A DNA stretch of 64,000 bases from a virus (Duplodnaviria; Caudoviricetes). Positions 33,590-64,000 of this stretch are shown in pieces. The notes below the pieces were generated by a model that saw nothing but the letters and a program-made list of their open reading frames with translations, searched no databases and was not told the origin of the DNA. Each line of letters opens with the position of its first letter. Position 1 is the stretch's first letter. A program made the translations under genes and the position numbers. The DNA lies in IMG/VR virus record IMGVR_UViG_3300033999_000083, positions 1 through 64,000 of that record; one strand, written 5' to 3'.

Positions 33590-33592
33590 ATA

Positions 33593-34838: not shown

Positions 34839-34845
34839 TAAGAAA

Positions 34846-35544: not shown

Positions 35545-35555
35545 TTGAATAATTA

Positions 35556-37456: not shown

Positions 37457-37464
37457 AATAAAAT

Positions 37465-38492: not shown

Positions 38493-38494
38493 AT

Positions 38495-38986: not shown

Positions 38987-38987
38987 T

Positions 38988-39968: not shown

Positions 39969-39999
39969 ATGAATAAAATATGTTTAGTAGTATGTAATA

Positions 40000-41362: not shown

Positions 41363-41371
41363 TTTTTAGTT

Positions 41372-42280: not shown

Positions 42281-42473
42281 TATGAGTTTATTATAATAAT
42301 TATTTTTAGATTTATTATATACATATACTATGTTTAGACACTAACCAAGTAAACAGATAAAAATTATCAAAGTTGAGGCAATTTTAGAATTTTAATTGTT
42401 GTAACTTTGTAATACAATTAGATGGAAATACTAGTAGATGGTAAATTAACAATTTTTAATGTAATATGTAAAT

Positions 42474-43055: not shown

Positions 43056-43065
43056 AAACAATTAC

Positions 43066-43095
43066 AAAGGTGGGGAAACATTCCTCACCTTTTTT
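43066..43095 (+). terminator. intrinsic terminator
   Basis: AAAGGTGGGGAA-ACA-TTCCTCACCTTT plus T run. Confidence 0.8.
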
Positions 43096-43130
43096 AGTCT
43101 AATTTAAGATTTAAACTTATAGATTACATA

Positions 43131-44474
43131 ATGAAAAAAAAGAAAGATTTACGAGAAGTTGAATATAATGCCTCACAGGATGAAGCATTTGACCAAAGGT
43201 CTGTAGGAGAACCAGTTAGAGACGAAGACGGAAAGATAAATGGCTATAGATTTAAGATATATGTTAGAGATTCTAGACCGTTAGAAGGATTTCTTACTAA
43301 CGAAGAAATGGAACTAATATATAGAGAGTACTCTTCTGATGGAGCTAATCTTACTCAGAGGAATATATCTAGACATTTTCCATATACAGTATCTGAATTT
43401 AAAAAGATACTACGTGCTTTTAATGTCACTAAGTCTGTAGTACCATTTCCTCCTCATGTTCTAGAATCTAGAACAACCGAAGAGTTACTAGAATTACATA
43501 TAAAGCAGAAAGAGGTAGATTTTCTTAAGAAGTATGAACAAGATAAAGGAGATTTATATAAGAAAAAATATAATGAACTTTTATTAGAACATCAAAAACT
43601 TAAAGAAGATTTTGAATCTGCAAAATATATTTCCGAAGACATAAATAAAGATAAGTTTAATACTATCAAATTAGATAGCTCTAATGAAACTATTATAGTG
43701 TATTTAAGTGATATGCATATTGGAGCTTATGTGTCTGAAGAAGGAGTATATGATAATAAGTATGATGAGGAAGAAGTTCATAGAAGGTTAAATATAATCC
43801 TAAACAAAATAAATAGTTATAATGGTACATTTAAAAATATAATTATTTTAAATTTAGGAGATGCAATTGATGGATATAATGCACAAACCTCAAGACCTGA
43901 TTCAACTCACATTCTTCCACAAAATATGTCTAATAAAGAACAAGGACAAGTTTTATTAAGACAAATGAGTGGTTTCTTTACAAATTTAAAAGATAATAAT
44001 CCAAATTCTGATATATTCTTTGTATCTGTTGGTCATTCAAATCATGGTGGAGATTTTGAACATAGTATTATTACAGCATTAGCTATAATGCTAGAGCATG
44101 AAGGTATTAGTACATATGTAGCGGTTAGGCCTATAGATCACTTTATTATTGGTGATAAAACTGTTATATTCTTACATGGTAAAGATAATATGGACCAATT
44201 TAAGAATTTTCCCCTTGTACTTAATGACAGAACAGAGTTATACTTTGATGAATATATAAGATATCATAGTTTAGGAGGCGATATTACTGTAGTAAAAGGT
44301 GATTTACATCATAGTGCTACAACGTATGGAAGAGCTTTTAAATACAAATCTGTAAGTAGCTTATTTGGTTCTAGTAATTGGATACATGCTAATTTCGGAT
44401 TTGCTAAATGGGGATGTGACTTTACCCTCATAGATAAAAACGGAGATACATTAGACGGCATAATAAAAGAATGA
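43131..44474 (+). CDS. metallophosphoesterase-domain protein with N-terminal extension
   Basis: LSDMHIG, LGDAIDG, SNHGG, HGKD, GDLH. Confidence 0.85.
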   Translation: MKKKKDLREVEYNASQDEAFDQRSVGEPVRDEDGKINGYRFKIYVRDSRPLEGFLTNEEMELIYREYSSDGANLTQRNISRHFPYTVSEFKKILRAFNVTKSVVPFPPHVLESRTTEELLELHIKQKEVDFLKKYEQDKGDLYKKKYNELLLEHQKLKEDFESAKYISEDINKDKFNTIKLDSSNETIIVYLSDMHIGAYVSEEGVYDNKYDEEEVHRRLNIILNKINSYNGTFKNIIILNLGDAIDGYNAQTSRPDSTHILPQNMSNKEQGQVLLRQMSGFFTNLKDNNPNSDIFFVSVGHSNHGGDFEHSIITALAIMLEHEGISTYVAVRPIDHFIIGDKTVIFLHGKDNMDQFKNFPLVLNDRTELYFDEYIRYHSLGGDITVVKGDLHHSATTYGRAFKYKSVSSLFGSSNWIHANFGFAKWGCDFTLIDKNGDTLDGIIKE

Positions 44475-44477
44475 ATT

Positions 44478-45245
44478 ATGGAAATTAGTGCAGATGCATT
44501 GCTTAAAGGCAAAAGCACAATAATTAAAAATAGAGAATACTTACCTACTAGAGAATATGCAGAACCATTTTTTGAGAAACTTAGTAAAGTAACTGATAAC
44601 TTTATTATACAGGTTAAGGAAGCAGATCAAATGAGTCTTACAAAAGATTCTAAAGATGTGGTATATAATAGAGTATGGATACAAGCTGTATTACCAGATA
44701 AATATACTGTAGATAATCATGCAGAAACATATGGTTTAATATATGGCTTAGATGTTAGGAAACCTGTTGCAAAAATTTATAGAGGTGTATTAAATAAAGC
44801 GTGTTTAAACTTATGTGTATTTGATCCATCTTGGTTAAATATTCAAGAATTAAAACCAGATGAACCTATAAATTATAGTTCTTTAAAAGAGCTTGTTGAA
44901 AAGGAAAATAATATGCATAAAGTATTAGAGGGAATGAAAAATGAATATTTTGTCCGTGAGGATAAAAAGATTCAACTAGGAGAATGGGTAGATTTTACAA
45001 TAAGTCATTATGATGATAAGGGCTTTGATAAAATAAGAATACCTTCGTCTGTTCCTATTGAAGTATATAAAGATTTATATTTAGATTCGGATAGTAAGTA
45101 TTTTGTGCCTGGAGGAATTAATCCTAGTAAATTTCAAGTATATAATGCTTTTACCGACATTATCAGCCACGATAAAAAAGATATAGTTAACATAGCAGAT
45201 AAAACAATACTGTTATCAAAACTATTGAATGTATCAGTTAATTAA
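44478..45245 (+). CDS. hypothetical protein (possibly DUF932-like)
   Basis: ACLNL motif, F.VYNAFT; family assignment tentative. Confidence 0.6.
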   Translation: MEISADALLKGKSTIIKNREYLPTREYAEPFFEKLSKVTDNFIIQVKEADQMSLTKDSKDVVYNRVWIQAVLPDKYTVDNHAETYGLIYGLDVRKPVAKIYRGVLNKACLNLCVFDPSWLNIQELKPDEPINYSSLKELVEKENNMHKVLEGMKNEYFVREDKKIQLGEWVDFTISHYDDKGFDKIRIPSSVPIEVYKDLYLDSDSKYFVPGGINPSKFQVYNAFTDIISHDKKDIVNIADKTILLSKLLNVSVN

Positions 45246-45800
45246 AATTGTGTATGACGACGACTGTAAATTTATTCTAGACATTGTTAAAGACTATAAT
45301 GTAAAGAAGGAAATTTACAGTCTAAGTCATTACAAAGAAAAGAAAAAAGGAATTCCTATTCTTACAAAGAATGGAACTAAAAAAGTTCCACTAGTAGAAT
45401 TAGTGGGAGAAGATTCAGAAAAGGTTATCTGGAGTGAAAGTAACCCTGATTGGAAGAAAGAACTAGATTCATTACTAAAAGATGATAAATAATTAATTAT
45501 AAAATTTTAAAAATGGTAACACTATTTGATGAAAGAGATTTAGTATCATTTGGAGCTTATATGATTTCAGATACAAGAAGAAAATCTATAGAAGAAAATC
45601 CAGATATAAAAAGTCAAGAAGAGATGGATAAAGTATTAAAAATGGTTACTCAATTTGACTTTAATAACTGGCTGACTTTGAAATTAAGATCTGAACAAGA
45701 GGAAAAAGACACAACTTTAGATAATGAAATATCTGATGAAGATATTATAGATGAAGAAGATCATCCTAAAATTGTAAAACTTAATCCTAATAATAATTAA
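45229..45800 (+). CDS. two small proteins (45229-45492 glutaredoxin-fold-like without CxxC; 45513-45800)
   Basis: GTKKVPLV resembles the glutaredoxin cis-Pro loop; upstream of RNR. Confidence 0.55.
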
Positions 45801-48800
45801 TGGAAGATTATTTTAAACATGATGAACTAGCCTATGATGTTTGGAAAGACAAGTATAGACAAGAAGGAGAAAGTTTAGAACAATTTTTTGAAAGACTGGA
45901 AAAAGGGTTTGATAGATCTTTTAGTTATGATAGAAATCTATCAGAGTATGGAAAAAAGAGGCTAAACAATCCATATAGAGAAACCTTACATACTTTATTT
46001 AAAGATTTTAAATATATAATTCCTGGAGGCTCTGTACTATATGGAATAGGTACTGATAAGCCTGTAAGCCTTAGTAATTGCTATGTTCTTAGCACTGAAG
46101 ATTCTATATCAGAAATCTTTGATACAGCTAAATATATGGCTAATATCTATAAAAGAAGAGGAGGAGTTGGAGTAGACATTTCAGTTTTAAGACCTAAAGG
46201 CGCTTCTGTTAATAATGCTGCTAAAACTACTACTGGGATTATACCATTTATGGATTTATTTAGTAATGTAACCAATACAATTGGGCAGAGTGGAAGACGT
46301 AAAACAGATGAAACATTTTTTAATATTGAAAATATACAGAGTAAATATTATGGACGAACAATTTTTAATGGAATGCTTAGAGAAAGGACTAAGTACTAGA
46401 CAAATAGAAGCTCTTCCTGGAGTTAATATAAAGAGAAGTGCTATAAGTTATTGAATTCATAAATATGGTTTAGAAAATGATATGAAATATAAAAAACCTA
46501 TTTACAATGAAAATTACTTTAGTACTATTGACACTAAGGAAAAAGCTTATATTTTAGGATACACTTTAGCAGATGGGTATATTAGTAATTCTGATTTAGT
46601 TTATGGATGTGCTATTGCAGATAAAGAAATACTAGACTTTATAGCCTCAGAAATAGGAGGACAAGTAAGAACTTATACCAAGTTAAATAGAGAATCTAGA
46701 ACATTTCCTAATGCAAAATTGAGTATAGGTAATAGAAAAATAGTAGAAGATATAAATAGGTTATGTAATTCTAAAGAGAATAAAACATTTCCTAGAATAA
46801 GAAAAGATTTACAACCATATATGCTATTAGGTTTTTTTGATGGAGATGGATGTTTAACATTCGGACATAGAAAAGATCGTAATAGATTATGGTATAAAAT
46901 ATGTTTTACAGGTTCTTATAAACTATTATATGCTATACAAAAATTACTTGAAAAGAATAAAGTTGTATCAAGCCTTCACCCTAAAGGTGATGAAAATTGT
47001 TATGTCCTAGAAATGTCATCGAAAGATTCAGTATTAAGAATTTTAAAAGCCATGTATGGTAAAGAAGATTTAATTGTACTGAAAAGAAAATATAATAAAT
47101 ACAATGCGCTGCGTCTTGAATTGGGAGAATTCGGTGAAACTACTATAAATAGTACAATACCGAGCCGAGCTTCAGACCATTCTGAAGAAGGTGTAGAGAC
47201 TACTGGAGGGAAAGAGGATTCCCTTAATAACCAGCTAGAGAACCCAAGTCTTACTATTAAGTAAGATAAGATATAGTCCAAATAAAGGGGCGCATTAATG
47301 ATAACCCTAGATATCAGACATCCTGATTCTCCAGATTTTGCTATTTGTAAAAGGGATTTAACTAAAATAACTGGTGCTAATATATCTTTAAAAGTATCTA
47401 AAGATTTTATATATGCTGTAGAAGGTAATAAAGATTACCTATTAAGATGGCCTGTAGATATAAATATAGATGATATAGATTTAAGTAAATTAGAATATGA
47501 TAAACTATATGAAGTATCTACTAAGAGATATATCAAGAAAATAAAAGCTAAAGAATTATGGGATACTATAATAGAATCTAATTGGCAGTCGGCTGAACCA
47601 GGAATACTTTTCTGGGATAACATTGTAGATTATGATTTAGCTAGTGTATATCCAGAGTATAAACCTATATCAACAAATCCTTGCGGTAGATTTTGCTGCA
47701 AGTAAAAAAATTCGAGAATTGCTGGAAACTTGGGATAGTTATACAACTACAACAAAACTAGAAATGGTATTTGTGAATGTTTGAAAATAGTATAACGTTA
47801 AGTAATCAGCAGCCGAGCTCCTAAGTTATTTATAATATGGAGAAGGTTCACAGACTATGTACGAATCAAAATTAATTTATGAAAACATTTAAAGAAAGGG
47901 CAGAAGAATTAGCCCTATCATGTACAAGAGTTAAAAATAATAATGTTTATGAAACTCTTGCAAAAGAATTTGGAATATGTAAAAGGACAGCTGGAGATAG
48001 GTTTAAGAGCCTATTTGGAATGCCTGTTAGTGAGTTTATTTCTAATAATCTTATTCCTTCAGAAGAAAAGGTAATTGATTGTTTAGTTCAATCAGAAACT
48101 TATAAAGAGTTTTATGATTTAACTGGAATAAATGATAGTGTAAGATTAGCTAATACATTAAAAAAATATTTTGGTACATCAGATTACTATAAATTAAAAG
48201 TATTAGCTTTATCTAAAATACCAAGTAAGAAATATAATCCAACTCCTGAAGATAATGAAGCTATTTTAGTTTCTCAAATGTTAGGAGATGGTTCTATAGA
48301 AAGAGAAAATTCTTTTAAAATAGAACATGGTTATAAACAGTATGAATACTTAAAATTTAAGGTCTCATTATTTAATAAAGCTTACCCTCAAACAAATGGT
48401 TTAGAGAAAATAAGAAAGAGAATATCTAAAGATAATTATGAATCTTATGTTTATAGAACTGGAGAGGTTTTACATAAACAATTATCAAGATTACTACATT
48501 TATCTAAAAAAGATTTAGTAAGTAAATTAACACCTTTTGGAGTTATGCTTTATTTTCTGGATGATGGATATTTTTCTATAAGTAAGGGTAAATATATTAC
48601 TTGGGAATTAGGTTTTAGCACTATAAATACAGAGTTACAAGAAGCTTTGTTTGAGTACTTTAAAACGTATGGATATACTTTTAACATCACTCCTAAAGCT
48701 ATAATCTTACAAAGTAAACCCACTATAATTAAGTTCATAAAAGATTTCTTAGAACCTTTTAAAGATATTATTCCAAAAAGTATGTATTATAAATTTAATT

Positions 48801-50412
48801 TAGAAGATATAGTCGAAATGATTTAATTAAATTTAAATCATAGGAAATTCCACTTAGTGCTTTAGATTCTTGTCGCTTAATTGCAGTTAACTTATATAGT
48901 CTTGTTAAGTATCCTTTTACAAAAGAAGCTTATATAAATGAAGATCTAGCATATACCGTATTTTATGAAGCTCAGGTTATTGCAGATACTCTTGTTGATG
49001 TTGAATTAAAGCATATAAAAAGAATTATAGATCTTAATGATGAGCCTGAACTTTGGAAAAAAGTATATGCTGTAGGAAAAAATGGAAGACGAACAGGTAC
49101 AGGAATAACTGCATTAGGTGACATGTGTGCTGCACTAGGAGTTCCATATGGAGATCCTTCAGTAGTAGAAAGAATAATGCATATAAAATTGCAAGCAGAA
49201 TTAGATGCTTCTATTGATTTAGCAATTACTGATGGGCCTTTTCCAGTTTATAATGGGGCTCTAGAGTATTATTCAGGAGAATATGGACTAGAAGGCGGTA
49301 ACAAGTTGTATGAATTTCTTCTAAAAGAATATCCAGAACAAGTAAGTAAAATGGTGCTGTACGGTCGGAGGAACATTTCAATTAGTACTGTGGCTCCTAC
49401 GGGGTCTCTAAGTATATTAACAGGTACTACTTCTGGTTGTGAACCTGTATTTTCATTATACTACCAAAGAAGGAAGAAATGTAATCCTGGAGAAACTCCT
49501 GATTTTGTAGATCAAAATGGAGTAGGTTTTAAGACTTATATGGTTATTCATCCTAAGTTTAGAGAATGGTATAAAGTAAAATATGGTGAAGAATTAAAAG
49601 ATGAGTCAGTAGAAAATTTGGACAGATTATATAAAGAATCTCCATATTATCTACAAACTGCTAATGATTTAACACCAGAACAAAGAATAGATACGCAAGC
49701 TATTTTACAGAAATATACAACTCATAGTATCAGTTCTACAGTTAATTTACCTGAGAATATAGATAAAGAAACTGTTAATAAGTTGTATATATTAGGTTAT
49801 GAAAAAAACTTAAAAGGTTTAACAACTTATAGAGCTGGAAGTAGATCTGGTATTTTAATTAACATAGAAAGTAAAGATTCTACAAGACCTCCTGAATTAC
49901 CTTGTAAAGTATTAAGATTTAAAAATGAAAAAAAGGATTGGATAGCTTTTATAGGTATAAAAGATGGTAAACCATATGAAATATTCACAGGTATTAATGA
50001 CCTAGATGAATTTCCAATACCATCTTATATAGAAGAAGGTACTATTATAAAAATACCTTCTGAAGGAAAATCTAGATATGATTTTAGGTATGTTGACAAT
50101 TATGGATACTCTAATACATTAGGTGGATTAAATAGAATATTTAATAAAGAGTATTGGAATTATGCCAGGTTTGTATCTGCTTTACTAAGAGAAGGAGTAG
50201 CTTTAGAAAATATTATTCATATTATAGAGAAATTAGAATTTAATAATAAATCTCTAAATTCTTGGCAATATGGAGTTATTAGAGCTATAAAGTCTTTTAT
50301 TGAAGATGGAACAAAGACTGATGAGGTTTGTTCAGAATGCGGAGAAAAAGCTATAGTATATGAAAATGGATGTAAAATCTGCAAGAACTGTGGAAACAGT
50401 AAATGTGGTTAA
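45800..50412 (+). CDS. nrdJ: class II (B12-dependent) ribonucleotide reductase, spliced (exons 45800-46300, 47289-47687, 48844-50412; 822 aa)
   Basis: SLSNCY, RRGGVG; splicing restores GQSGRR|GALM and TNPCG|EIPL; TVAPTGS; C-terminal CxxC Zn ribbon; no beta subunit nearby. Confidence 0.92.
46301..47288 (+). mobile_element. group I intron 1 of nrdJ, ORF in L1, apparently no P9
   Basis: IGS AATGCGCT-GCGTCTT (47103-47117) pairs both exons; GAATTCGGTGAAAC, ATACCGAGCCGAG, GTAGAGACTA, AAGATATAGTCC. Confidence 0.9.
46350..47264 (+). CDS. HTH + LAGLIDADG homing endonuclease with in-frame TGA (Trp) at 46452
   Basis: MDEQFLMECLEKGLSTRQI...AISY(W)IHKYGL in frame with AYILGYTLADG and LLGFFDGDG. Confidence 0.85.
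47688..48843 (+). mobile_element. group I intron 2 of nrdJ, ORF between R and S (P8 region)
   Basis: P1 TGCGGT/GCTGCA; GAATTGCTGGAAA, AATCAGCAGCCGAG, GTTCACAGACTA, GAAGATATAGTC; P9 ATGATTTAA/TTAAATCAT; terminal G. Confidence 0.92.
47879..48826 (+). CDS. LAGLIDADG homing endonuclease
   Basis: ILVSQMLGDGS, H...QYEYL.FK, LTPFG....FLDDG. Confidence 0.85.
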   Translation: MKTFKERAEELALSCTRVKNNNVYETLAKEFGICKRTAGDRFKSLFGMPVSEFISNNLIPSEEKVIDCLVQSETYKEFYDLTGINDSVRLANTLKKYFGTSDYYKLKVLALSKIPSKKYNPTPEDNEAILVSQMLGDGSIERENSFKIEHGYKQYEYLKFKVSLFNKAYPQTNGLEKIRKRISKDNYESYVYRTGEVLHKQLSRLLHLSKKDLVSKLTPFGVMLYFLDDGYFSISKGKYITWELGFSTINTELQEALFEYFKTYGYTFNITPKAIILQSKPTIIKFIKDFLEPFKDIIPKSMYYKFNLEDIVEMI

Positions 50413-50749
50413 CAAAATAAAACAAAATTTAAGAGATTTTTACTTAATCTATTTTTCTAAAAAGATGTCTAAAGATGATGCTGTTAGATTAATAATAAAT
50501 AAAGAATTAAAGAGATACAAAGTTGATATAGATTATGTTAAAGATAATCCTACAATAGAAGGAGAAAGATGGTACGAATATTATACTTTTAACTCTGAAG
50601 AAGAATATGAAAAATGGGAGAAATTTTCTAAAAGAATACTTAGAAAAGTATTTCCTTATTCAGACAAAAAGTTCATAGATAATGAATTTAGCTATCTTAA
50701 TTTAGCCTATGGTTTAAGATGTAAATATGGTAATAAAAATAATAAATAA
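50360..50749 (+). CDS. hypothetical protein
   Basis: ORF; start probably downstream (MSKDDA). Confidence 0.55.
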   Translation: MKMDVKSARTVETVNVVNKIKQNLRDFYLIYFSKKMSKDDAVRLIINKELKRYKVDIDYVKDNPTIEGERWYEYYTFNSEEEYEKWEKFSKRILRKVFPYSDKKFIDNEFSYLNLAYGLRCKYGNKNNK

Positions 50750-51158
50750 ATCAAAAAATCCACTACCTAAATATGCACATGATGAAGATTCTGGATTGGA
50801 TCTATATGCTTCTTTAGATTTCGAAATTGTTATAAAACCTGGAGAAAGAGCCCTTATACCTACTGATATTTATGTAGCACTTCCTAAAGGTTTTGAGTTT
50901 CAGGTAAGAAGTAGATCAGGTTTAGCTTTAAAACATGGTATATTTGTATTAAATTCTCCAGGAACTATAGACTCTGGATACAGAAATTCTATAGGAGTTA
51001 TTTTATATAACTCTGGAAAGGAAGATTATATTGTTAGAAATGGAGATCGCATAGCACAGTTAGTACTACAAGAAGTACCCAAAGTAGTATGGAAAGAAGT
51101 TGATACTTTGGATAACACAGAAAGAGGTACAAAAGGTTATGGATCTAGTGGATATTAA
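50727..51158 (+). CDS. dut: dUTPase (trimeric)
   Basis: SGLDL, RSRSGLA, GTIDSGYR, GDRIAQL, RGTKGYGSSG. Confidence 0.97.
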   Translation: MVIKIINKSKNPLPKYAHDEDSGLDLYASLDFEIVIKPGERALIPTDIYVALPKGFEFQVRSRSGLALKHGIFVLNSPGTIDSGYRNSIGVILYNSGKEDYIVRNGDRIAQLVLQEVPKVVWKEVDTLDNTERGTKGYGSSGY

Positions 51159-51166
51159 TTATTAAA

Positions 51167-52333
51167 ATGGTAATATTAAAGGATATATATTTAGTTAGCA
51201 GAAATGCTAGAGACAAAGTTCAACAGGTAGAGGTTCAATTAATTCAAGATACTAAGTCTTTTATTATAAAGAGATTTACTGGGCAATATTTAGGTAAACA
51301 GACAGAGCAGCCAGACCTAATTATAACTAGTGGTAAAGTTAAAAGATCTTCTATAGAACAGGCTGAATTACAGTTTAACAGCATAATTAACAAGTATCTT
51401 GATAAAGGATATAAGAAAGTATCTGACCTTACTAAGACACCTTTTAATGAGATTAATGAATCTGAAATGAATAGACTTGTTCCATCAGTTAGTACAGATT
51501 CAGATGGATTCTTAAAACCGATGTTAGCTAAAGACTCTAATAAGTGTCAAACGTCTGTATTAAATAAGAGGATGTTATGTAGCAAAAAGTTAAATGGCAC
51601 CAGAGCTATGATTCAGAAGAGAGGTGATGAAATCTATGCAATCTCTAGAGGTGGTAAGGATTATAATATACCTACTACATTAATTAGAAATCAATTAAAA
51701 GATTTCTTTGATAAACATCCTACTGTAATATTGGATGGAGAATTATATAGACACGGACACCATTTACAAGAATTGAGTGGCATAGCTAGATTAAAAGAAT
51801 GGGATGATAGGTGTAACCTACTAGAATATTGGGTTTATGATATAGCTGATTCAGAAAAAACTTTTGAAGAAAGATTAGAACTTTTAAAAGAATATGAAAA
51901 AGAATTGATAGATGCTGATAAGATAAAGTTTCTTGAACATGTAGAAACTAACAGTTTTAGTGAAATTAAAAAACTTCATGATCAATGGGTTAAAGAAGGG
52001 TTTGAAGGATTAGTTGCTAGAAAACCTACTAGTACTTATCAATTCGGTAAAAGAGGTTCTGATATGATTAAAGTTAAAGAATATATGGAACAAGAATTTG
52101 AGATTGTAGATTATAAAGATGGTCTTAGAGATGAAGATTTTTGTTTCATATTACAAACTGAAGATGGTAAGTTATTTTCTGCTAAACCTATAGGAGATAG
52201 AGAACTTAAAAAACAATATCTTGAAAATATTGATAATATTATTGGTAAAAAAGGAACGGTAAAATTCTTTGAATGGTCTAAAGATGGAGTTCCTTTGCAA
52301 CCCATATTTCAAGTTGTAAGAGATTATGAATAA
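51167..52333 (+). CDS. ATP-dependent DNA ligase
   Basis: KPMLA, KLNGTR, LDGELY, YDI, EGLVAR, IKVK. Confidence 0.92.
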   Translation: MVILKDIYLVSRNARDKVQQVEVQLIQDTKSFIIKRFTGQYLGKQTEQPDLIITSGKVKRSSIEQAELQFNSIINKYLDKGYKKVSDLTKTPFNEINESEMNRLVPSVSTDSDGFLKPMLAKDSNKCQTSVLNKRMLCSKKLNGTRAMIQKRGDEIYAISRGGKDYNIPTTLIRNQLKDFFDKHPTVILDGELYRHGHHLQELSGIARLKEWDDRCNLLEYWVYDIADSEKTFEERLELLKEYEKELIDADKIKFLEHVETNSFSEIKKLHDQWVKEGFEGLVARKPTSTYQFGKRGSDMIKVKEYMEQEFEIVDYKDGLRDEDFCFILQTEDGKLFSAKPIGDRELKKQYLENIDNIIGKKGTVKFFEWSKDGVPLQPIFQVVRDYE

Positions 52334-52405
52334 TAAATATATGGTATAGAGGAGGTTATTATAGCTACTCTATACCTATATTTTAAAAGTAAACTATTAA
52401 TATTT

Positions 52406-52588
52406 ATGCAAGAAAATAAAAATTCTATTTATACTGGGTATAGCACCCTAAGTAATAAACTAAGAATAGAACCTTTTTATTCTGGAGAAAGTACAGCTGT
52501 AACTCAATATAAAGTTGTTGATGAATTTGGAAATATATGGTTTATAGGTGAAAGAAATGAATGTGAACAATTATTAAATACCAAGTGA
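52406..52588 (+). CDS. small hypothetical protein
   Basis: ORF overlapping the next gene. Confidence 0.5.
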   Translation: MQENKNSIYTGYSTLSNKLRIEPFYSGESTAVTQYKVVDEFGNIWFIGERNECEQLLNTK

Positions 52589-53319
52589 TGAAAATAAATA
52601 AGTTAAATATTATATTACTTATTGTTTTGGGTATAGTTATATTTATAACTATAATAAGAATAAATACTTATAAAAATAAATATGATAATCAGATAGAATT
52701 ATATAATGCAATAACTGATTCTTTAAAAGTATATAAAAACAAAGATTCTTTAAATGTAGCTAAAATTAGAGTAATGCAAACAGATAAAGAATCAGATTTT
52801 TTAAAAATTAAGAATCTTACAGGCACTAATTTAGAGCTGCAAAATCTTATTAAGAATAAAGATAAGAAAATTAAAGATTTAAATACTGCATTGATATTAA
52901 AAGATGAAACTGTTTTTATTGATACATTAAGGCAATTCTATCCTATAGGAGGAGATACAATTGTGTTTTCTCAATCTACTATATTAGATACTATATCTGA
53001 TAAATGGATAAATACAGTATTTGGATTTAGAAAGGGTTTTTCTTATTTGGATTTAAAAGTATATAATGAATATCAACTTACTATAGGGTATGAAGGAGGT
53101 AATATATTTAGACAGGGAACTCCTTATGGTATAGTAACTAACTTAAATCCTTATACTGTTACTAAAGATATGAAAGTATATCAAGTTAATATACCACAAA
53201 AGAAATTTGGGGTATCTCTACAATTAGGGGTTGGTAGTTTATATGATTTAAATACTAAGTTACTTGGGTATGGCCCATATGCAGGTATAGGATTTAATTA
53301 TAATTTTATGTTATGGTAA
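52585..53319 (+). CDS. membrane-anchored coiled-coil protein (possibly spanin-like)
   Basis: N-terminal TM, coiled coil, C-terminal beta-hairpin FGVSLQLGVG...PYAGIGFNY. Confidence 0.6.
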   Translation: MMKINKLNIILLIVLGIVIFITIIRINTYKNKYDNQIELYNAITDSLKVYKNKDSLNVAKIRVMQTDKESDFLKIKNLTGTNLELQNLIKNKDKKIKDLNTALILKDETVFIDTLRQFYPIGGDTIVFSQSTILDTISDKWINTVFGFRKGFSYLDLKVYNEYQLTIGYEGGNIFRQGTPYGIVTNLNPYTVTKDMKVYQVNIPQKKFGVSLQLGVGSLYDLNTKLLGYGPYAGIGFNYNFMLW

Positions 53320-54296
53320 ATATAGAATGGAATTCATATTTAGCTTGTGCTTATGCAGAAGGTTTCTGTGAGGGTGAAGATGCTACAATAGAAGAACAAA
53401 TGGAAGCTTGGGCTTATATAATTAAGAATAAGCTTTATAGAAATTTACAGGGATTCTATGGTAGAATTTCAAGTGAATTGATAAATAATGGATATATATC
53501 TATAGATGGAAAAATAAATTGGGATAAAGTATATAATAGTGAATAAATATGATGATGAAAAAAATAGAAATAAGTAAAGAGCTAGAGAATTTACTTGATA
53601 AAGCCAATCTATTAACTAATAGCTGTAGAAACGACATAACTATATTAGAACACATGGATAAAAGCTCAGGAGACTTTGAAAAAAGAATTAGTAGTTTAGA
53701 AAAGAAACTTAATGACTTAAATGCATTAGCTAATTTAATTAATGATATGGTTTATAAAGTTAAAAAACAATAGTCTATGGGATTTTATTTGGTATGGACT
53801 CCATATCTAGCTTGCACTTGTGTGGAAAGTGGTACCAAAGATGTAATGATACAATTGGATGCTTGGGCTTATATTATTAGAAACAAATTATATAACAAAA
53901 ACCGTGAAAAATGGTATAATGATATGGCAGAAGCATTTATTAGAACTGGTCTTATATCTGAAGATGGAGTTATAGACTTATATAAAATTAATGAAGCTTT
54001 AAATAATGAGTAAAATAAAGATTAAGGTTATTGAACCAGAGACTATAGAAGTATTCGGGCCAGATGGGTCTTCATATGGTAAATTGAATGAGTTAGAATT
54101 CTTAGATTTAAGATGCCAAATAAAGAAAAATAAACAATCTGGGTTTTATATATATTACAACGGAGAAAAAGTTAAGATAAGAAGAGATGGGTTAATGGAA
54201 AAATATGTTCCAATTTTTGTAGATAGTATATATAAATACAATTATCTATTAGATATACCTAATGAAAGTTTTAAAAATGATACTTTAAATGGATAA
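53313..54296 (+). CDS. four small hypothetical proteins (53313-53546, 53549-53773, 53777-54013, 54006-54296)
   Basis: 53313 and 53777 are paralogs (W..YLAC...E...Q..AWAYII.NKLY). Confidence 0.7.
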
Positions 54297-54555
54297 TATA
54301 GAAAGGTTTAAGAATATAACTGATTATATGATTAAATTGTACGAAGAGAAGAATAAGAACTATGGAAATAGTTTTGATAAAACTCTTGATGATGATGGAT
54401 TGATAGTAGCTAAAATAAGGTTATCAGATAAACTAAATAGATTCTCAAATATAATTAAAAATGGTATTGGAGAAACTGATGAGTCTATAACTGATACATT
54501 AATTGATTTAGCTAATTATGCTATTATGACTGTTATGTGGATAAATAAAAAATAA
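54289..54555 (+). CDS. nucleotide-modification-associated domain 1 (DUF1599-like) protein
   Basis: KN.NYGNSF...RL.DK..R...ES..DTL.DLANYAIM. Confidence 0.85.
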   Translation: MDNIERFKNITDYMIKLYEEKNKNYGNSFDKTLDDDGLIVAKIRLSDKLNRFSNIIKNGIGETDESITDTLIDLANYAIMTVMWINKK

Positions 54556-54561
54556 TAAACT

Positions 54562-54996
54562 ATGAGTTTAGATGTAACACTAAGAGATAATAAAAAATCT
54601 ACTAGACTAAGAACTGGTATATTTGTAAGAGAAGATGGAAAGAATAAGGAACTAACTTTAGAGGAAGCCAAACAAAGATATCCTGACAAAGATATAAATC
54701 TTTATGAAGTTGAAGATGATGTATTATATTCCGATAATATAACACATAATCTAACACATATGGCTAGAGAAGCTGGTTTATATGAAGCTTTATGGAATCC
54801 TAAAGTACACAGAGCTGGAGATTTAATAGAGCCTTTAAAAGAAGGATTACACTTATTAAAATTAGATCCAGAAAAGTATAAAAAATTTAATCCAGAAAAT
54901 GGATGGGGTAACTATGAAACTTTAGTAAATTTTGTACAAAGTTATCTAGATGCTTGTTATAAATATCCAGATTCTATTGTTGAAATTGATAAATAA
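54562..54996 (+). CDS. hypothetical protein
   Basis: NITHNL..MA, NPENGWG.Y motifs. Confidence 0.7.
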   Translation: MSLDVTLRDNKKSTRLRTGIFVREDGKNKELTLEEAKQRYPDKDINLYEVEDDVLYSDNITHNLTHMAREAGLYEALWNPKVHRAGDLIEPLKEGLHLLKLDPEKYKKFNPENGWGNYETLVNFVQSYLDACYKYPDSIVEIDK

Positions 54997-56009
54997 TGAA
55001 TAAAATAAGTGCTAATATTGTAGCTGACTCAATATCTATACATGGGGATAGAGTTACTACATTTTTACTTACCTTTCCTAGATTTATACTACCTGAATTA
55101 AATACTCACAGAATGTTTTCACGTAATAGTGCTAGTAGTAGGGCTATACCTTTTGAAAAAATGGTTAAAATGGTAGAAGAAGATCCATTTATACCTATAG
55201 CCTGGCAAAAAGATCACAAAGGTATGCAGGGTACTGAGTATTTTAATGAAGAGGAATCTAAATCTAAAATTAAAGAGTGGTTAATTGCTAGAGATAATGC
55301 TGTTACTCAAGCTAAAAAACTACATTCTGAAGGTGTAACAAAACAACTATGTAATAGATTATTAGAACCTTTTTTATGGCATACAGTATTACTTACTGCA
55401 ACTGAGTTTGAAAACTTTTTTAAACTCAGATGTCCGCAATATGTAATTAATTGGTATCCAAAAGATAGACCAGAAGCTTTAGAACCAACTCAAGCTACAT
55501 TTAAAAGTAAAGAGCAAGCAATCCTATATACAGGAGAATGTTCTAATTGGACAGAAAATGATTGGAGAATGAGTAACATAGCTCAAGCAGAAATACATAT
55601 GCAAGCATTAGCAGAAGCTATGTGGGATGCTTATAATAAATCTACCCCTGTATTTCTTAGAGAGAATCAGTGGCATATTCCTTATAGAGAGAATATAGAT
55701 AAAGATAATATTGATGATGTTATTAAAATAGCAACTGCAAGATGTGCTAGACTGTCTTATATGACATTTGATAATGAGATTGATTATGAAAAAGATATAA
55801 AACTTCATGACAAACTCATAGAAAATTGTCATTTAAGCCCTTTAGAGCACATTTGTCAATGTTTAACTGAAGAAGAATATCAAGCTAGTACAAAAACAAT
55901 AGGTTTTTATAATGGAAGAATAATTCTGGAAGAGGGTTGGTGTGGTAATCTTAGAGGATTTAAATCTTATAGATATATAATAGAGAATGGAATATATAGA
56001 TCTTATTAA
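54996..56009 (+). CDS. thyX: flavin-dependent thymidylate synthase
   Basis: ELNTHRMFSRNSASSRAIP, KQLCNRLLEPF, ARCARLSY, HLSPLEH. Confidence 0.92.
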   Translation: MNKISANIVADSISIHGDRVTTFLLTFPRFILPELNTHRMFSRNSASSRAIPFEKMVKMVEEDPFIPIAWQKDHKGMQGTEYFNEEESKSKIKEWLIARDNAVTQAKKLHSEGVTKQLCNRLLEPFLWHTVLLTATEFENFFKLRCPQYVINWYPKDRPEALEPTQATFKSKEQAILYTGECSNWTENDWRMSNIAQAEIHMQALAEAMWDAYNKSTPVFLRENQWHIPYRENIDKDNIDDVIKIATARCARLSYMTFDNEIDYEKDIKLHDKLIENCHLSPLEHICQCLTEEEYQASTKTIGFYNGRIILEEGWCGNLRGFKSYRYIIENGIYRSY

Positions 56010-56199
56010 TAATGCATATTTACACAAAGTAAAAAATTACACTATTAATATAATAAGTAAATATCCTAATATTAAGAATTTAATAGAAGATGAATATTAC
56101 AAACTTCTTATAAAAATAGCTAACAGAGAATTAAAAAATAATGATTTTTCAAATTATTATAGACAAACTGAAATTTTGATTATGAAAAATTTAGGATAA
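55987..56199 (+). CDS. small hypothetical protein
   Basis: Last + strand ORF in the track before the strand switch. Confidence 0.5.
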   Translation: MEYIDLINNAYLHKVKNYTINIISKYPNIKNLIEDEYYKLLIKIANRELKNNDFSNYYRQTEILIMKNLG

Positions 56200-56595: not shown

Positions 56596-56681
56596 AAAGG
56601 GAATAGTCTGTATAGATTATTCCCTTTATTTTTTTAATAAAAAAGCCGAGTACAGAAATTACTGTATTCGGCTTATTTTTT
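56596..56681. terminator. two hairpin terminators at the convergence of the + and - modules
   Basis: AAAGGGAATAGTCT/AGATTATTCCCTTT + T run; AAGCCGAGTACAG/CTGTATTCGGCTT flanked by A and T runs. Confidence 0.85.
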
Positions 56682-59600
56682 TTATCTTAACATTTCAAAC
56701 ATACCTATAGATTGTGCAGCTGCTTTACCCAAAGTCTTGTCACCTTGAATAACATCTCCTACATTTTGCGTGGCTCCTAAACTCCAACTTAATCATGCTG
56801 GTTCGGAACTTAATGCTCCAAAAGTATTATTTCATAAATTATACTCATTAAGTACTTTTGTATTAACAGCATCCATAAAGGCTACAGTTTCACCACTAAA
56901 AGTACCTCTTTCAGTAGAATCTTTCATTGAGTCGTATATAGCTCTCATAATACCTAATATCATAAAGATCAAAACAGAATCTCCTATAGCATAAAGAGTT
57001 CTATTCACTCTTCATTTATTCTTTTTAAGATCATCCCAGTTTAATCTAACCAAATCATTTATTGTATAAAAGACAGAATAAAATATACCTTCTTGTGGAG
57101 TACCATTTCAAGCCATAAGTTTTTCATCTGTTTCATATTCTACAATTTCTCTTTTTGGAACACCATACTCATCTAATACTGGATCACCATTTTCATCTAC
57201 AACATCTTTAAGATATAAATGTATTGGTTTACCTTTATCATCGAGTATTAGATTGCCATCAGCATCTTTTTTGACTGCATGTTCAAACTTACCTACAGGA
57301 GATGCATCAGCTGATATTGGTTTACCAAATCAAAATTGCATCTTAGATGGCCAATACTGCATAAATTGAAAGAATGCAATTCCTGCTAACTTATTATTAA
57401 TTTGAGCTTGTGCATCTTTATCATATGCTCCATATACTCTATCAGCCATAGCTTTTATTGAGTTTCTTTCTTTAAGAGTATAAGCTTTAGGAATTAAATC
57501 TTTTTCTGTAAGATGACCTTCTCCTACAATAGCATATTCAGAATTAAATTGTTCTATCATTAAAAGATATAGATTTCTTTGCTCATTGTATAAAGAGTCT
57601 CCAGATTTTTTAGTATAATTGCCATCAGCATCCTTATACTTTTCCCTTTCTGCTAAGTAATAGGAAAATCTTTTATCTTTTCTTGGATCATATACTAAAG
57701 TATTTCCTTTCATAGAATGCGCTTCATAAGAACCATCTTTAATCATTCTAGCTAATAATATGGCTAACCTATTAAAGTAATCTCCACCAGTTGATGTAGC
57801 AAACATTCATCTACCTAATCCCCTTGCCAATCCTAATTTATCATGTTGAACTTTTTCTGGCATGGTTGCTATATCCATATTAGCTATTCTATACTCATTA
57901 TTTAATGCCTCTATTAAATTATGTTCTACAGCTTGTTTTAACCCTACAGTTAATAACTTTTCATAAGCCTTTATCATTTCTTTTTCTCCAAAGTCAGCAT
58001 GTATTCCTGTACCAGCAGTAAGTAGATTTCTTATAGTTCCAACAGTTATTTCTTTTACTAACATAGTTGGTCTAAAAGCTAGCATTGCTATAGTAGAAAA
58101 TTTCTTTTGAAAAGCTAATCCTTGAGCTATATTTTTCTCTTCATCATCCACTAATGGTTTACTAAATACTGCTAGGTTTACCTGGTTAACTATATAGTTT
58201 AGTTGCTTCCTAACCTTTTCATCCATCTTTCCTCCCATTAACTTCATTCACCATACATATGATTCAATAGTTGGGAGTATTATATCAAATATTCTTTTTC
58301 TAGTTTTATAAAAAGCTACCTTATGAGCTATAGTATCAAGATTTAGTTCAAAATAATCTATTTGCTCCCTATCCATCATTCTTGCTCTTGTCTCATCATC
58401 TTGACTTCCAAACACATCATACATTTGAAAAAACCCAAGTCTTTGATGTTCTATATTTTCTACATCAAGTGAGGAGAATTCTCTAGGATCTATGGTGTCT
58501 CTTAGATTATCTTTTACCATATTATATCACTCACCAAACCCAGTTACAAGTCTTTTATATTTAGAGATTTCTTCTCTCCTCATAAGTGGCATTTTAAAAT
58601 AATCTCCAGATTCTATTCTAGCTTTTAGTCATTTATTATTAGTAATGTTCTCTAAGTTAGTTGGATCTATAGAATAAATTTCATTTTCTGGTAATCCAGC
58701 CATGAAACCATTTATATAAAGCAATGTTTGTTTTAAATATTTTCTCTGGTCTTCAGTTAAAGCATTTTCTTCATCAATTATATATGGATTTTTAGCTCTA
58801 AAAGATTTATCAATTTTTCCAGTTTCTTTATCCTTTACAAAAAAGTCAGCATGTATAGATTGAGTTTCCCCTCAAGTCATTTGTTTAAACTTACCATATC
58901 CTAGTTTTCTATAAAGTTCATCAGTTAAAGGTCATTGGTGTTCACTAAATTTATTAAGTTTCTGTCCATTTATAGAGTTGCCATTAGCAACCATCTCATT
59001 TATATTCCTTAAGTCTTTGGATTGAACAAATTCTGGATTAATCCAGGATAACCCACCTATTATACCAAGTATTCTATTACCTTTTTTATCATATTTTCTT
59101 TGATTCTTGTTAAGAATACCTAATCACAGAGACTGAAAATCTCCAGCCTCGATACTATATTCTGTTAAACCTTGAAAATCAACTTCAGGTTTTATACCAG
59201 ATTTAGATAATATAGCTGTTTGTAATAAAGCATATAATACTTCTGTTGGATTTTGAAAATCTAGTTCTTTAGTTGGTTCTACATCTCTATATTCAGGAAA
59301 AGCTATTAGAAATTGATCCCTTGCTTCAATTAATCTTTCTCTTGATATTTCGTCAAACCTATTATTTTGCAGTATAGAAAATATATTTTCAACTTCTTTT
59401 TGTCCTTTACCTGCATAGTTTTTTACATAAGTATTTAGAGTCATTAATGCAAGATCTTCTGTTCCTACTAAATCATTGTCATTAATTTTTATTTTATCTC
59501 CCATACCTACTTCATTCATTCTTCTTCTAAACCAAGTAAGAACAGTTGCAGAAGACCTATATCTACTTTTTCCATTCCTACTATTAAAAACTATTATTTC

Positions 59601-61322
59601 TCCTAACTTATAAGCTCCTTTGGCTAAAAGAACATCTTTATATTCATTTAAGAAATACATAGCTTTTAACATTTCTACCTGGTCATAAGTCATTCCTTTA
59701 ATTCCAGATTCTGCTCATAAGTTATGAACTGTAATATCAAATAAATTTATTATTCCAGTTTTAGTATTTCTCATGACAATTATTCCTAAGGCATCAGCTT
59801 CGTTAATACCTTCTAAAACTTGCCAATCATCATTTAAATATTCTGTTAATACGTGGTCTAAAGCTATATCTTTTTTACTTGGATTTTTTCCTAATTTTAT
59901 ACTAGAACCTGTAGCAATAGATGATATTACAGCATTTTTTACTACACTAACACCTCTACCTTCTAATGATTTTACATGATTTACATATAAAGCCATCTTT
60001 TCTCTAAACTTTGCTTCTGCTTCCTCAGCAGTTTGATGTTCAGTAGTTTCTATTATCATCCCTTCTGGTAATCCATCTATATCTTTAAAACCATTATATT
60101 TTTTAAATACTCCAGTTTTTTCAAATCTTTCTCTAGAGTTTTTCATTAATAACTCTAAATCATTATCTTCCCACTCTGTTTTAACTCTGTAATCTGGAAA
60201 CAATAATTTATTCAAAGAATCTTTAAGTGCTGCTATTTTATTTGGATCATACTCAGGTTTAATTTTTCTAGGAAGTAATATCTCAGCAATAGAAGATATT
60301 TGTCTATACTTTTCTAAACCAGAGACTCCTTGAGTAGTTCTGTTTATTGGAGTTCCAAATTTTAAAGTAGTTACATCACCTAACTTACTAAATTCTATAG
60401 GTATTATATAAAGCCTAGTGTTTTCTACATCTATATGTTGTCCTAATAATTGTCTTTCTAGAGCTAGCTCCCAATCATAAGTAAGAGTTTTAGATTCATC
60501 CCAATCACTAAAAGGATGTTTAGATATTTTCACATCATATATACTAGCCACTCCAGAAGTATTAACAGTTACTATACCTAGTTTAGCTTTTAATTGAACA
60601 TTATTTGCTTTATTAGGTAAAGATACTAAATGAATAGAGCGTAAGGGTTCTCCTTCTAAAGAACGTATTATATTACCAATAATAGACTTTATTCTTTCTT
60701 CTCATATAGATATATCTACATCATTACCAAATATCTCTGGATTCTCTGAATAAAATTTTCTAAAATCTTCTTCAAATTTTCCATTATTTGATAAAATCAT
60801 ATCTACTCATTCATGAAACTTAATACTAAAATTTTTAGTCATTTCTTCTATTCTAATCCTACTTTCTACTTCAGCAAGTGCAGGTATTAAGTCTTTATCA
60901 TCGTATTGTTTTAATACAGGATCTCTCTTTAACATCTCTAAATATTCTGGAGTATAGACTGCACCAGTGTTGTTAGTATACTCTTCTAAATGTGCCTTAA
61001 CAAATTCTAGAATTCTATTTTCTTGTATAAATTCTGGAGCTAACCTACTCTGTCCTTTTAGTGCTGCTATATTTCCAAATATTTCAGCATGAGGTTTAGT
61101 AATAAATTCATACACAGTTTCTACATCTGTAGCTTCATAATAAGATTTAGGAGAATTAGCTTTAAGTATTTCTCTTTTAATACTATCTACCACATCTTCA
61201 GAACTAAATATAGAATTTGAAGCTAAAATACTAGTTTCTTTTAGAAAATCTTCATATACAGAACTTTCTAAATCATATCTTATTAATTCACCATTTTCTT
61301 TTTTATAATAAAAGCATCCCAT
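56682..61322 (-). CDS. giant protein (1546 aa with TGA=Trp), likely virion/ejected protein; contains a PD-(D/E)xK-like segment
   Basis: Six track ORFs share one frame, broken only by 15 TGA codons, no TAA/TAG until 56682-56684; SIYDVKIS...YDWELALERQLL. Confidence 0.9.
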
Positions 61323-61323
61323 A

Positions 61324-64000
61324 TTAATCACATTTTAGTATTATTTTATTTTTAGCCCATTCTCTAAATGAAGCTTCTGAATCTATTAATCTAACATTAT
61401 AGTAAGGAGAAGATATATCACTTTTATAATTAAATATATCTTTTAAAGATGACTTAAACAATTCTTCAGGATTATTTATTGCTCTTTCTATATTTAAACT
61501 AAAATCAGGATTTATTTTTTTAATTACATTATATAACTGTTGAGCTACTATCTCTGCTTTATCTAAAAAATCAGTAATATAATCACCTTGTAAAGCATTA
61601 ACTATAGCTTTAACAAACTGTTCCTCTCTTTCTGAAATATCTTCCTCATTTTCATTTTTTCCTAGTACAGATTCAATTGTTCTTTCGTATGTACTGTAAT
61701 CACTGTATCTGAGTAATGTTAAAAATATATGTAAATTTTCATGAACTAGATCTGACTTAGTACCTTTATTTCCATTTAATAATATAGAAGTTTTTAGTTT
61801 ATCATCTACTACTTCAGTTTTTATTTTAGCAAATTGATTATTTTTAAACTCTTTACTATCATTACTTATATCTACATCTATACTATAATTTCCAAAGTAT
61901 GCTTTCATTTTATCTAATAAATCCTGCATACCAGCAATATTAAGAATTTCATCATGAGATAAGATACCTCCCGTAGCTTTTAACAAAACATTGGTTTTAC
62001 TGTTACCACTTTGTAAGTATAGATTATATATTGCACCATCTGGAGTTGTGTCTTTACCATCTATCTTTATTGGGGTTTGATATAATTGTTTTTTACTAAA
62101 TATTCTTTCTACAGTTATAATATCACCTTTATCATTAGTTCTGTTTGTATGAGCTATAATTTCATTTCCAACATCTTCCATAACTCTGTACATAGTGTCA
62201 GATAAACTTCCATGTTCAGCTATAGTAAAATATACACCTTTCTTTAAAGGATTTATTCTTTCTTTTTCTTCTATCGGTATTTTATTAAAATCAGTAATCT
62301 TTCTAAGATCAGATAAATTTCTTTGATACTTTCTAGAACCATTTAAGTCAGTAACATAAAGTTTAGTATTTTTATCTATAATTTTAAAGAATGTAGCTTT
62401 TACATAATTAGTAATATCTTTATATCCTCTTGGAATATCGGTATATTTATCTATATATCTACCTATATTAGCATAACCAGTTGGAAAAAATACTAAACTA
62501 TTTTCATCTACATCGTTAGGAATAATATATTTCACTTCTACAAGATTAGTTTCTTGTTCTGCAATCCCAATTGGTTTAGGGGTTACTTTTCAATTATTGA
62601 CTCTTAAAATATGCACAGTGTATGGAGATGAGATATCTCTTGGAGTATAAAATTGTATATTAGATATATTGGATATATCTACTGTTTCATATACTTTAGA
62701 GGTGTCTGTAAATATTATACCTTTATTTTTATCTACTATTTTACCATATACTGTAGTTCCATTTAGTTTGCCATAAAAATAATCCCCTTTAGTAGCTTTA
62801 TTAATATCAAAAAATGAAGATAGTGTTCTAGCTGATATACTCGAAGTATTAACGTTATCTATTATTTCTTTTCTTTCATTACTAGTAAACACAGCATTCG
62901 AGTGCATCCATGCTTTACTATCTCTTAATTCTATTCTTGAAATTGGTTTTATGTACCTTTTATTGTCATTACCTACTATTATAAATACATAATCTGGATT
63001 AGAATATACCACAACTGCTTTATTTTTAATAGTAGATGTGGGATCTACTATAATATCATCTTTTGATATAAGATTTACATCACGTATTTCTGTATAAGCA
63101 TTATAATTAAAGTTCTTAAGTACATTAGAATATACTTTATACAATTCTCCTAATTTGGCTGAATTAAAATTCTTTACATCAGAATATGCTTGTTTAATAA
63201 ATTCATCACCAGATTTTACATATAGATATGCAGGATATACACCTACTACAGTACCTATATCTGTTTTATCGCCAATCATTGCATTGTCTTTTATAAACTC
63301 TTGCAAATCGTTTCTAGACAAATACTTAAAATTTCTTCTTAATTCTACAAGATTATCATTAGTTAAAATCTCAGCATCTGGATCATATGGTATTTTAGGA
63401 TTTTCTCTTTTTCTTATAAACAACTCATCTCCTGGTAAATATGCTTTCTTAAAATATTTGTAATTACCTTCCTGATCTTTGTATAAACTAACTATATAGA
63501 CACCATTATTTTTTGGAAATATGTTCTGAATAATATATGGATTAAAATGTTTTTTACCAGTTTCATCTACTCTAGGAACCATTAACAAGTCTTTTCCTAT
63601 GGAAACATTTTGAACTATATATTTATAATCTACGTTGTCTAATTTAATCATTTCAGAAAATAAATCATCCTTAGCTTTTGTATAATCAAATAAATTTATA
63701 GCTTCAGCATAAGACTTTATCTTATCAACATTATATTCACTACTAAATGCTTTTTCCATTTCTAGAAATTGCTGTTGATTTATAATCTCCCTAATTACAT
63801 TGTATCCGTAACTATTTGGGTTTAAATTTTGAAACACACTTTTAGTAGTACTATATAAAGAATTTGTAGAGTCTAGTCTATTAGTGACTAACTTTATTAT
63901 TTCAGAAATTACATTATTATTCTCTTTACTTTCTAATAATTTTTCAAACTTAGAAGGATTAACTGCTTCTTCTGCTATATTATCAAAAAATTCTTTAGAA
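61324..64000 (-). CDS. giant protein (5' end outside window) with zincin-like HExxH motif; one in-frame TGA at 62590
   Basis: Frame open from 64000 to TAA at 61324-61326 except for one TGA; LVHENLH. Confidence 0.85.

Follow-up and report, generated by a model that had tools for sequence, protein, structure and literature searches.

In the virus record IMGVR_UViG_3300033999_000083, a 93,401-bp contig classed 'linear' (here G000), the codon TGA encodes tryptophan in one strand block and is confined to the ends of open reading frames (ORFs) in the other. The window that we analysed is the first 64 kb of this contig. It contains an early and replication block on the plus strand (1-56.2 kb) and the beginning of a minus-strand block of late, virion-type genes, which runs from 56.7 kb to the contig end. 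We show here that TGA in the late block is a sense codon meaning Trp, and that the boundary between the blocks is real. The gene that drew our attention, 61331-56682, is the minus-strand gene next to the convergent junction, and its conserved frame contains 15 TGA codons. Considering the contig together with its relatives, we put at roughly 85% the probability of the following joint reading: G000 comes from a crAss-like phage with blockwise use of TGA, in which a tRNA(UCA) of the phage, once aminoacylated by the host tryptophanyl-tRNA synthetase (TrpRS), translates late TGA codons as Trp, with a temporal switch between the two codes.

Codon usage in the two strand blocks

The contig has a G+C content of about 28%, and the sign of its GC skew flips near 56 kb. 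CheckV estimates it at about 53% of the expected genome size, and open-ended ORFs at both ends show that it is truncated. It includes only the distal 37 kb of the late block, which measures about 79 kb in the complete relative G001 described below. Three terminator-like sites were found, against 0.1 expected from shuffled sequences, and two strong ones lie in the gap between the converging blocks (Table 1).

Under the standard bacterial code (code 11), the minus strand past 56.7 kb reads as a row of same-frame fragments, which code 4 (TGA as Trp) joins. The stretch 61331-56682 then becomes a single frame of 1549 codons without internal TAA or TAG, with TGA at residues 175, 210, 539, 736, 800, 820, 901, 935, 1028, 1175, 1334, 1408, 1440, 1500 and 1513. 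A preliminary description of this DNA had listed these 15 codons (60807 to 56793) in the frame 61322-56682, and one further TGA at 62590 in the next gene; every position was exact, and the last is the only TGA of its gene. The ATG at 61322, residue 4 of the 1549-codon frame, is the probable start, and homologues begin there too. In the two alternative frames of the same stretch, TAA and TAG together make up 10.6% and 9.5% of codons, so that 1549 open codons are not explained by chance (probability about 1e-67 to 1e-75).

Nine minus-strand ORFs were found across the contig (1549, 1143, 3021, 3002, 632, 1415, 389, 422 and 159 amino acids). Summed, they contain 50 in-frame TGA and 52 TGG codons; TAA and TAG do not occur in frame, and TAA is the stop codon of all nine. 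Every gene of this block relies on TGA as a sense codon. Coding density differs between the blocks. From 56.4 to 93.4 kb, coverage rises from 0.822 under code 11 to 0.984 under code 4, with the number of ORFs falling from 38 to 13; from 1 to 56.4 kb it goes from 0.866 to 0.869, with 103 and 100 ORFs, respectively. Neither block gains coverage when TAG or TAA is treated as sense. The Trp content of the late block is 0.87% if TGA is counted as Trp and 0.44% otherwise; that of the early block is about 1.0%.

The 107 plus-strand ORFs of at least 50 amino acids contain 170 TGG codons and no in-frame TGA, and they end in TAA (70), TGA (20) or TAG (17). Under code 11, the domains of their replication enzymes are matched in full. 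Eight stop-start junctions are ATGA overlaps and one is GTGA; the TGA codons at 9813, 10618, 10830, 12840, 17238, 20131, 22778 and 24541, previously cited as stops, are all ORF ends that overlap the next ATG in this way. The plus-strand genes are fully readable in the standard code; strictly, the earlier statement that TGA is a stop in early genes amounts to TGA being confined to ORF ends. Reading through the plus-strand TGA stops adds a median of 3 codons before the next TAA or TAG. Such back-up stops are not significantly closer after plus-strand TGA than after the other two stop codons (Mann-Whitney p=0.15, Fisher p=0.21), and selection for tandem stops is not claimed here.

The short read-through distance bears on the question of whether the phage and its host use a TGA-sense code throughout (code 4, or code 25 with TGA as Gly), with the plus-strand TGA stops being coincidental. 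Read-through would hardly alter the plus-strand proteins, and the low G+C content would also fit. We nevertheless consider a genome-wide TGA-sense code very unlikely. At the 49% share of TGA seen in the late block, finding no TGA beside 170 TGG codons has a chance probability of about 2e-50. This count is conditional on ORFs called with code 11, so that the nearly unchanged plus-strand coverage, to which code 4 adds 0.3%, serves as an independent check. The eight ATGA overlaps point the same way. Code 25 is disfavoured further by the rarity of Gly at the TGA columns of the protein alignment described below (39 of 1372 cells). Finally, the listed matches of the G001 TerL protein are to phages of Crassvirales or other Bacteroidota wherever a taxon or host is given, and Bacteroidota use the standard code.

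Tryptophan at the TGA positions

A phmmer search with the protein of 61331-56682 returned 570 homologues at E<=1e-3, of which 143 reached E<=1e-30. Many of the homologues have about 1500 amino acids. Among the 150 homologues listed, 105 have at least 1300 amino acids, which supports one long ORF; these 105 were aligned and the 45 shorter ones excluded. Trp occupies 175 of 1372 cells (12.8%) at the 15 TGA columns, compared with a background of 0.87% and with 20.7% at the 10 TGG columns. In the eight closest homologues Trp is by far the best BLOSUM62 fit at the TGA columns, and columns 210, 1028, 1175, 1334 and 1408 are mostly Trp.

Related DNA was reached only by an alignment query, which led to 13 distant IMG/VR loci; exact-peptide scans with the G000 protein alone gave zero matches in IMG/VR and in metagenome contigs. 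The orthologues at all 13 loci contain 4-22 in-frame TGA codons and no TAG or TAA. For a codon-level comparison, two loci were removed as duplicates (99-100% identity), leaving 11 distinct relatives. Facing the 15 TGA codons of the G000 gene, these relatives have TGA in 31 and TGG in 15 of 142 non-gap cells; facing its 10 TGG codons, they have TGA in 28 and TGG in 19 of 94. The background at non-Trp columns is 75 TGA and 30 TGG in 13,760 cells. TGA and TGG thus swap freely at homologous sites in the 11 relatives.

The GenBank record MT835470 (117 kb, GC 36%) provides a distant relative with the standard code: coverage is 0.977 under code 11, against 0.973 under code 4, and ARAGORN detects no tRNA in it. 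Trp is found in 6 of the 18 MT835470 residue cells that face a G000 TGA, and in 4 of the 24 that face a G000 TGG. The assignment of TGA to Trp in the minus-strand genes, which the preliminary description had made from the sequence of G000, is therefore borne out by the Trp columns, by the TGA/TGG interchange and by comparison with a standard-code relative.

The same comparisons speak to the possibility that the TGA codons are true stops in a late region that is decayed or fragmented, or that they are sequencing or assembly artefacts. Code 11 does still yield ORFs of 90-1168 amino acids in this region. Against this, the fragments of each gene share one frame and are not separated by any TAA or TAG, the same architecture recurs in 13 independent contigs, full-length homologues of about 1500 amino acids exist, and TGA interchanges with TGG at conserved Trp columns. 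True stops or artefacts are, in our judgement, exceedingly improbable.

Suppressor tRNA and proposed mechanism

In the relative G001 (172,188 bp, 100% complete by CheckV), the plus block spans about 62-155 kb, and the minus block extends over 155-172 kb and on through 0-62 kb. As in G000, the orthologue of the 61331-56682 gene comes first among the minus-strand genes at the convergent junction, and six giant late genes are collinear between the two genomes at 26-36% identity and similar lengths. G001 encodes 26-29 tRNAs, which form a plus-strand array apart from one solitary minus-strand tRNA(UCA) at 60,008-60,081. This tRNA folds as a normal cloverleaf, has G73 as discriminator and matches the phage's own tRNA-Trp(CCA) in loop context. 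It is surrounded by small, mostly TGA-free ORFs near the divergent junction and lies about 7 kb upstream of the genes for TerL (704 amino acids, 9 TGA) and the portal protein (741 amino acids, 4 TGA). A closely similar tRNA(UCA) occupies the same place in G002 (138.5 kb, 75% complete), about 7 kb upstream of a TerL gene with 10 TGA codons.

The preliminary description had predicted a suppressor tRNA and, as a probable further element, antagonism of release factor 2 (RF2). The tRNA exists at the late-block head of the relatives G001 and G002, if not in the 93-kb contig itself. RF2 antagonism found no support: neither a release-factor domain (PF00472) nor a TrpRS-type synthetase (PF00579) was detected in G000, in the complete G001, or in G002, G003 and G005.

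Drawing on these relatives and on the literature, we infer that the phage of G000 also has a suppressor tRNA, that the host TrpRS charges it, and that the switch is temporal. Plus-strand early genes would be written for translation by a standard-code host. Once transcription of the late block starts, the phage tRNA(UCA) would be made and charged with Trp by the host TrpRS. The charged tRNA would then beat RF2 at UGA, and only thereafter would full-length late proteins appear. For the 20 plus-strand genes with a TGA stop, an active suppressor would mean a median gain of 3 codons.

Several observations weigh against this joint reading. Across all 105 distant homologues, Tyr scores marginally above Trp at the TGA columns, many of which are variable, with Tyr or hydrophobic residues common. 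Part of the database homologues may themselves be code 4 translations, which makes the protein alignment partly circular; this is why the comparisons at the DNA level and with a standard-code relative were run. The gene directly downstream of the tRNA(UCA) in G002 has 8 TGA codons, so that a clean 'TGA-free leader' is not a general feature. The loci around tRNA matches in G003 (59% complete) and G005 (48%) yielded no tRNA(UCA), and G004 (43%) gave no tRNA match at all. Nor was one found in the 93.4 kb of G000 by ARAGORN, by the Rfam tRNA model or by similarity to the G001 suppressor, and the suppressor anticodon-loop motif occurs in G000 at chance level (15 against 18.5 expected). For G000 this result is expected and uninformative, because the head of the late block, where the tRNA is located in the relatives, lies beyond the contig end.

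If no phage suppressor existed, late TGA codons might be read by a host factor, by near-cognate tRNA-Trp(CCA) or by a non-canonical RNA, a candidate for which is the interrupted tRNA-like gene at the block junction (56320-56538). Besides the missing tRNA(UCA) in 93 kb, there is precedent for such a situation: suppressors occur in only about 35% of TGA-recoded phages (Borges 2021, 10.1101/2021.08.26.457843, as far as the available excerpts go), and mismatches between recoding and suppressors have been noted (Yutin 2021, PMC7886860; PMC12386605, Table 1; excerpts). However, the contig represents only about half a genome, and both relatives that reach the late-block head have a canonical tRNA(UCA). 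The interrupted gene gives no UCA anticodon arm, and the ARAGORN models of it yield other anticodons. We regard decoding without a phage suppressor as unlikely.

In the element at 56320-56538, the acceptor stem is perfect over 7 bp, the D arm resembles that of tRNA-Leu, a T arm is present and the 3' CCA-like end is encoded, but the anticodon region is interrupted by about 131 additional nucleotides. With introns allowed, ARAGORN models it as tRNA-Thr(GGT) with an unpaired 17-nucleotide variable arm; Rfam recognises only the T arm (14 bits), and the RNAfold z-score is -1.9. A UCA anticodon arm is not derivable from it, no anticodon can be assigned, and there is no evidence for a role as an opal suppressor. 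The element was not found at the junction of 11 relatives, and an exact 27-mer from its 5' half is not present in IMG/VR. G001 contains, at about 102,016-102,229, an interrupted element whose D arm is the same and whose insert measures 121 nucleotides; ARAGORN calls it Pro.

A more specific version of the joint reading takes the position of the suppressor into account. A solitary opal-suppressor tRNA, placed early in the late block and upstream of the terminase gene, might act as a self-timed, feed-forward code switch that needs no release factor or synthetase, and the element at 56320-56538 might add a splicing-dependent layer or even be the decoder. If so, transcription of the late block would itself switch the code of the cell. 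We consider this version unlikely.

As a separate observation, ARAGORN identifies an 84-nucleotide tRNA with the anticodon UUA, of the ochre-suppressor type, in the TGA-recoded relative G003 (locus L042, 698-781; the same site is covered by locus L045, 1944-2027).

Relation to known phages

TerL, portal and major capsid protein genes are absent from the G000 stretch, and classification relies on G001, in which TerL (matching phrog_6681) and portal (matching phrog_6547) were identified, but no major capsid protein. The G001 TerL matched 115 phage records, the best being MT835470 with 45% identity. Where the listed matches have a taxon or host, they are Crassvirales, Flavobacterium or Azobacteroides phages; they include cr124_1 (Crassvirales, Suoliviridae) and PhiCrAss isolates on Bacteroides. 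These matches agree with the link to crAss-like phages that the preliminary description had drawn. G000 is most probably part of a large, gut-type crAss-like phage. Its assignment to the Zeta group is provisional and made by shared features rather than phylogeny.

Late-gene recoding of opal or amber codons has been described in Zeta crAss-like phages (Yutin 2021, PMC7886860; Zeta/Lera 2025, PMC12386605), and the principle of late-gene TGA recoding is already published for crAss-like and other phages. G000 is a divergent, low-GC member of this pattern. According to the available excerpts of these two descriptions, Zeta genomes of 145-192 kb have arrays of 17-29 tRNAs, to be compared with 172 kb and 26-29 tRNAs in G001, and they have self-splicing introns and LAGLIDADG endonucleases in replication genes. 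They also have in-frame TGA codons in TerL, portal, giant virion or RNA polymerase (RNAP)-type proteins and a helicase-bearing protein, with none in replication genes, and tRNA(UCA) is present in some genomes and missing from others. G000 and G001 agree with this description in genome size class, number of tRNAs, introns with homing endonucleases, and TGA reassignment in late genes. G000 differs in its very divergent sequence and in a G+C content (28%) at the low end of the published 28-38%. Moreover, in G001 and G002 the suppressor gene is separated from the main tRNA array and occupies the late-block head, a placement unmentioned in those excerpts.

Other recoded phages share part of this organisation. 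Excerpts of Borges 2021 (bioRxiv 10.1101/2021.08.26.457843) describe standard-code-compatible early genes, recoded late structural genes and a code-change gene, the suppressor tRNA, directly upstream of recoded genes; charging of the suppressor by the host TrpRS was proposed there as well. The TGA-recoded Jade phages of that study have a 'code change module' in which RF1 and TrpRS accompany the suppressor, whereas neither was found in G000 or four relatives. The crAss-like phages that read TAG as Gln (code 15), validated by metaproteomics (Peters 2022, PMC9523058), belong to the same phage order and follow the same late-gene logic, but with another codon and amino acid, and code 15 is the only code validated in the excerpts of that study. 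A literature search on limited terms found no proteomic validation of TGA-to-Trp recoding in phages. The genome-wide codes 4 (Mollicutes) and 25 (Gracilibacteria/Absconditabacteria), with their phages, likewise combine TGA as an amino acid codon with low G+C content; in G000, by contrast, only one strand block is recoded, the TGA codons line up with Trp and not with Gly, and in-frame TGA is missing from the early block.

These results have a practical consequence. Annotation with the standard code splits the late genes of G000 into about 38 false fragments and conceals four proteins of 1400-3000 amino acids; mixed-code annotation is therefore needed, for which Mgcod is a dedicated tool according to its abstract. 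With G000, the phages in which TGA recoding is restricted to late genes gain a very divergent lineage of low G+C content. The contig is also a compact case for testing an apparently tRNA-only code-change apparatus, with no release factor or TrpRS found. Neither this apparatus nor a solitary, promoter-proximal suppressor is mentioned in the excerpts of related descriptions that our limited-term search returned.

Other features of the window

The coordinates of the features in the window are collected in Table 1.

Table 1. Features of the 64-kb window. Positions are those of the window, which begins at contig position 1.
Feature	Position	Strand	Remarks
Early and replication/nucleotide-metabolism block	1..56199	+	Standard-code readable; 107 ORFs of at least 50 amino acids
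tRNA, anticodon CAU (Rfam alignment)	15385..15458	+	Not an opal suppressor
Atypical tRNA-like gene, anticodon GAU	16621..16697	+	Rfam 35 bits; missed by ARAGORN; not an opal suppressor
Group I intron	28487-28724	+	Rfam 80 bits
Group I intron	29081-29320	+	Rfam 103 bits
Interrupted tRNA-like gene	56320-56538	+	In the convergent gap between the blocks
Two strong terminator-like sites (hairpin and T-run)	56596..56674	+	In the convergent gap between the blocks
Conserved late gene, about 1546-1549 amino acids	56682..61331	-	15 in-frame TGA, 10 TGG; TAA stop
Late gene, 1143 amino acids (3' part in window, 61324..64000)	61324-64755 in contig	-	One TGA, at 62590-62592; TAA stop

The protein encoded by 61331-56682 shares no more than 38% identity with its nearest IMG/VR relatives and 22-27% with phage records in GenBank. 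It gave no family match in Pfam or PHROG, and a nine-sequence profile gave no match to PDB sequences. An AlphaFold2 model of residues 950-1549 is mostly helical, with a predicted local distance difference test (pLDDT) score of 81.8; Foldseek against the PDB found no match to it at E<=0.001. The best VIA-align match to this model (Z 7.2) covers a single helical hairpin only and is uninformative.

Giant proteins of the minus block are nearly devoid of family matches. The 1143-residue protein is collinear with a 1179-residue orthologue in G001, and the 3002-residue protein contains a helicase-type P-loop/UvrD_C domain. The 3021-residue protein (64757-73822 in the contig) has, as its only named family hit, a weak match to a PHROG annotated as 'virion structural protein', and it contains a D-F-D-V-D motif; a DxDxD motif has been described in the RNAP block of crAss-like phages (Yutin 2021, PMC7886860, excerpt). 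The region around its motif matched only two unannotated faecal phage records. No match of the protein to solved structures (PDB sequences) was found, and homology to the crAss-like RNAP is not established.

Within the recoded late block of G001 (locus L050), at about 26,000-38,600 on the minus strand, we observed a sub-block of eight genes of 282-548 amino acids. In-frame TGA is missing from seven of them and occurs once in the eighth; TGG codons are abundant, and TAG serves as the stop in some. This sub-block is a mosaic of coding styles in a single direction of transcription.

Two tRNA-like genes lie within the plus block. That at 15385..15458 has C instead of U at position 33, as a result of which ARAGORN miscalls a two-base anticodon, 'cc'. 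The element at 16621..16697 has a vestigial D arm and an 18-nucleotide variable region with a small hairpin.

Many small ORFs open the plus block and are followed by genes for replication and nucleotide metabolism. The latter encode a family-A-type DNA polymerase fragment, two helicases, a primase, exonucleases, ribonucleotide reductase (RNR), an ATP-dependent ligase, thymidylate synthase and AAA ATPases. The block also has three ORFs for LAGLIDADG endonucleases. Both group I introns sit between the polymerase fragment (26011-27690) with its adjoining LAGLIDADG ORF (27785-28459) and an ORF at 29402-30139, and introns appear to interrupt the polymerase gene. The RNR ORF (49123-50412) fits only the C-terminal part of its profile, and the other two LAGLIDADG ORFs (46482-47264 and 47879-48826) are located upstream of it.

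At 43131-45245, a plus-strand TGA stop is followed by a long in-frame ORF, the sole such case in the block. An SbcD-like exonuclease (447 amino acids, complete domain) stops at this TGA, and an ORF of 255 amino acids begins 4 nucleotides on in the same frame; code 4 would merge them into 704 amino acids. They are probably two genes, and a late read-through fusion could be made from them. Further upstream, 38949-39968 (plus strand) encodes a 339-residue protein with three repeats, which matches two PHROGs of unknown function, phrog_5070 (4.6e-74) and phrog_7964 (3.7e-69).

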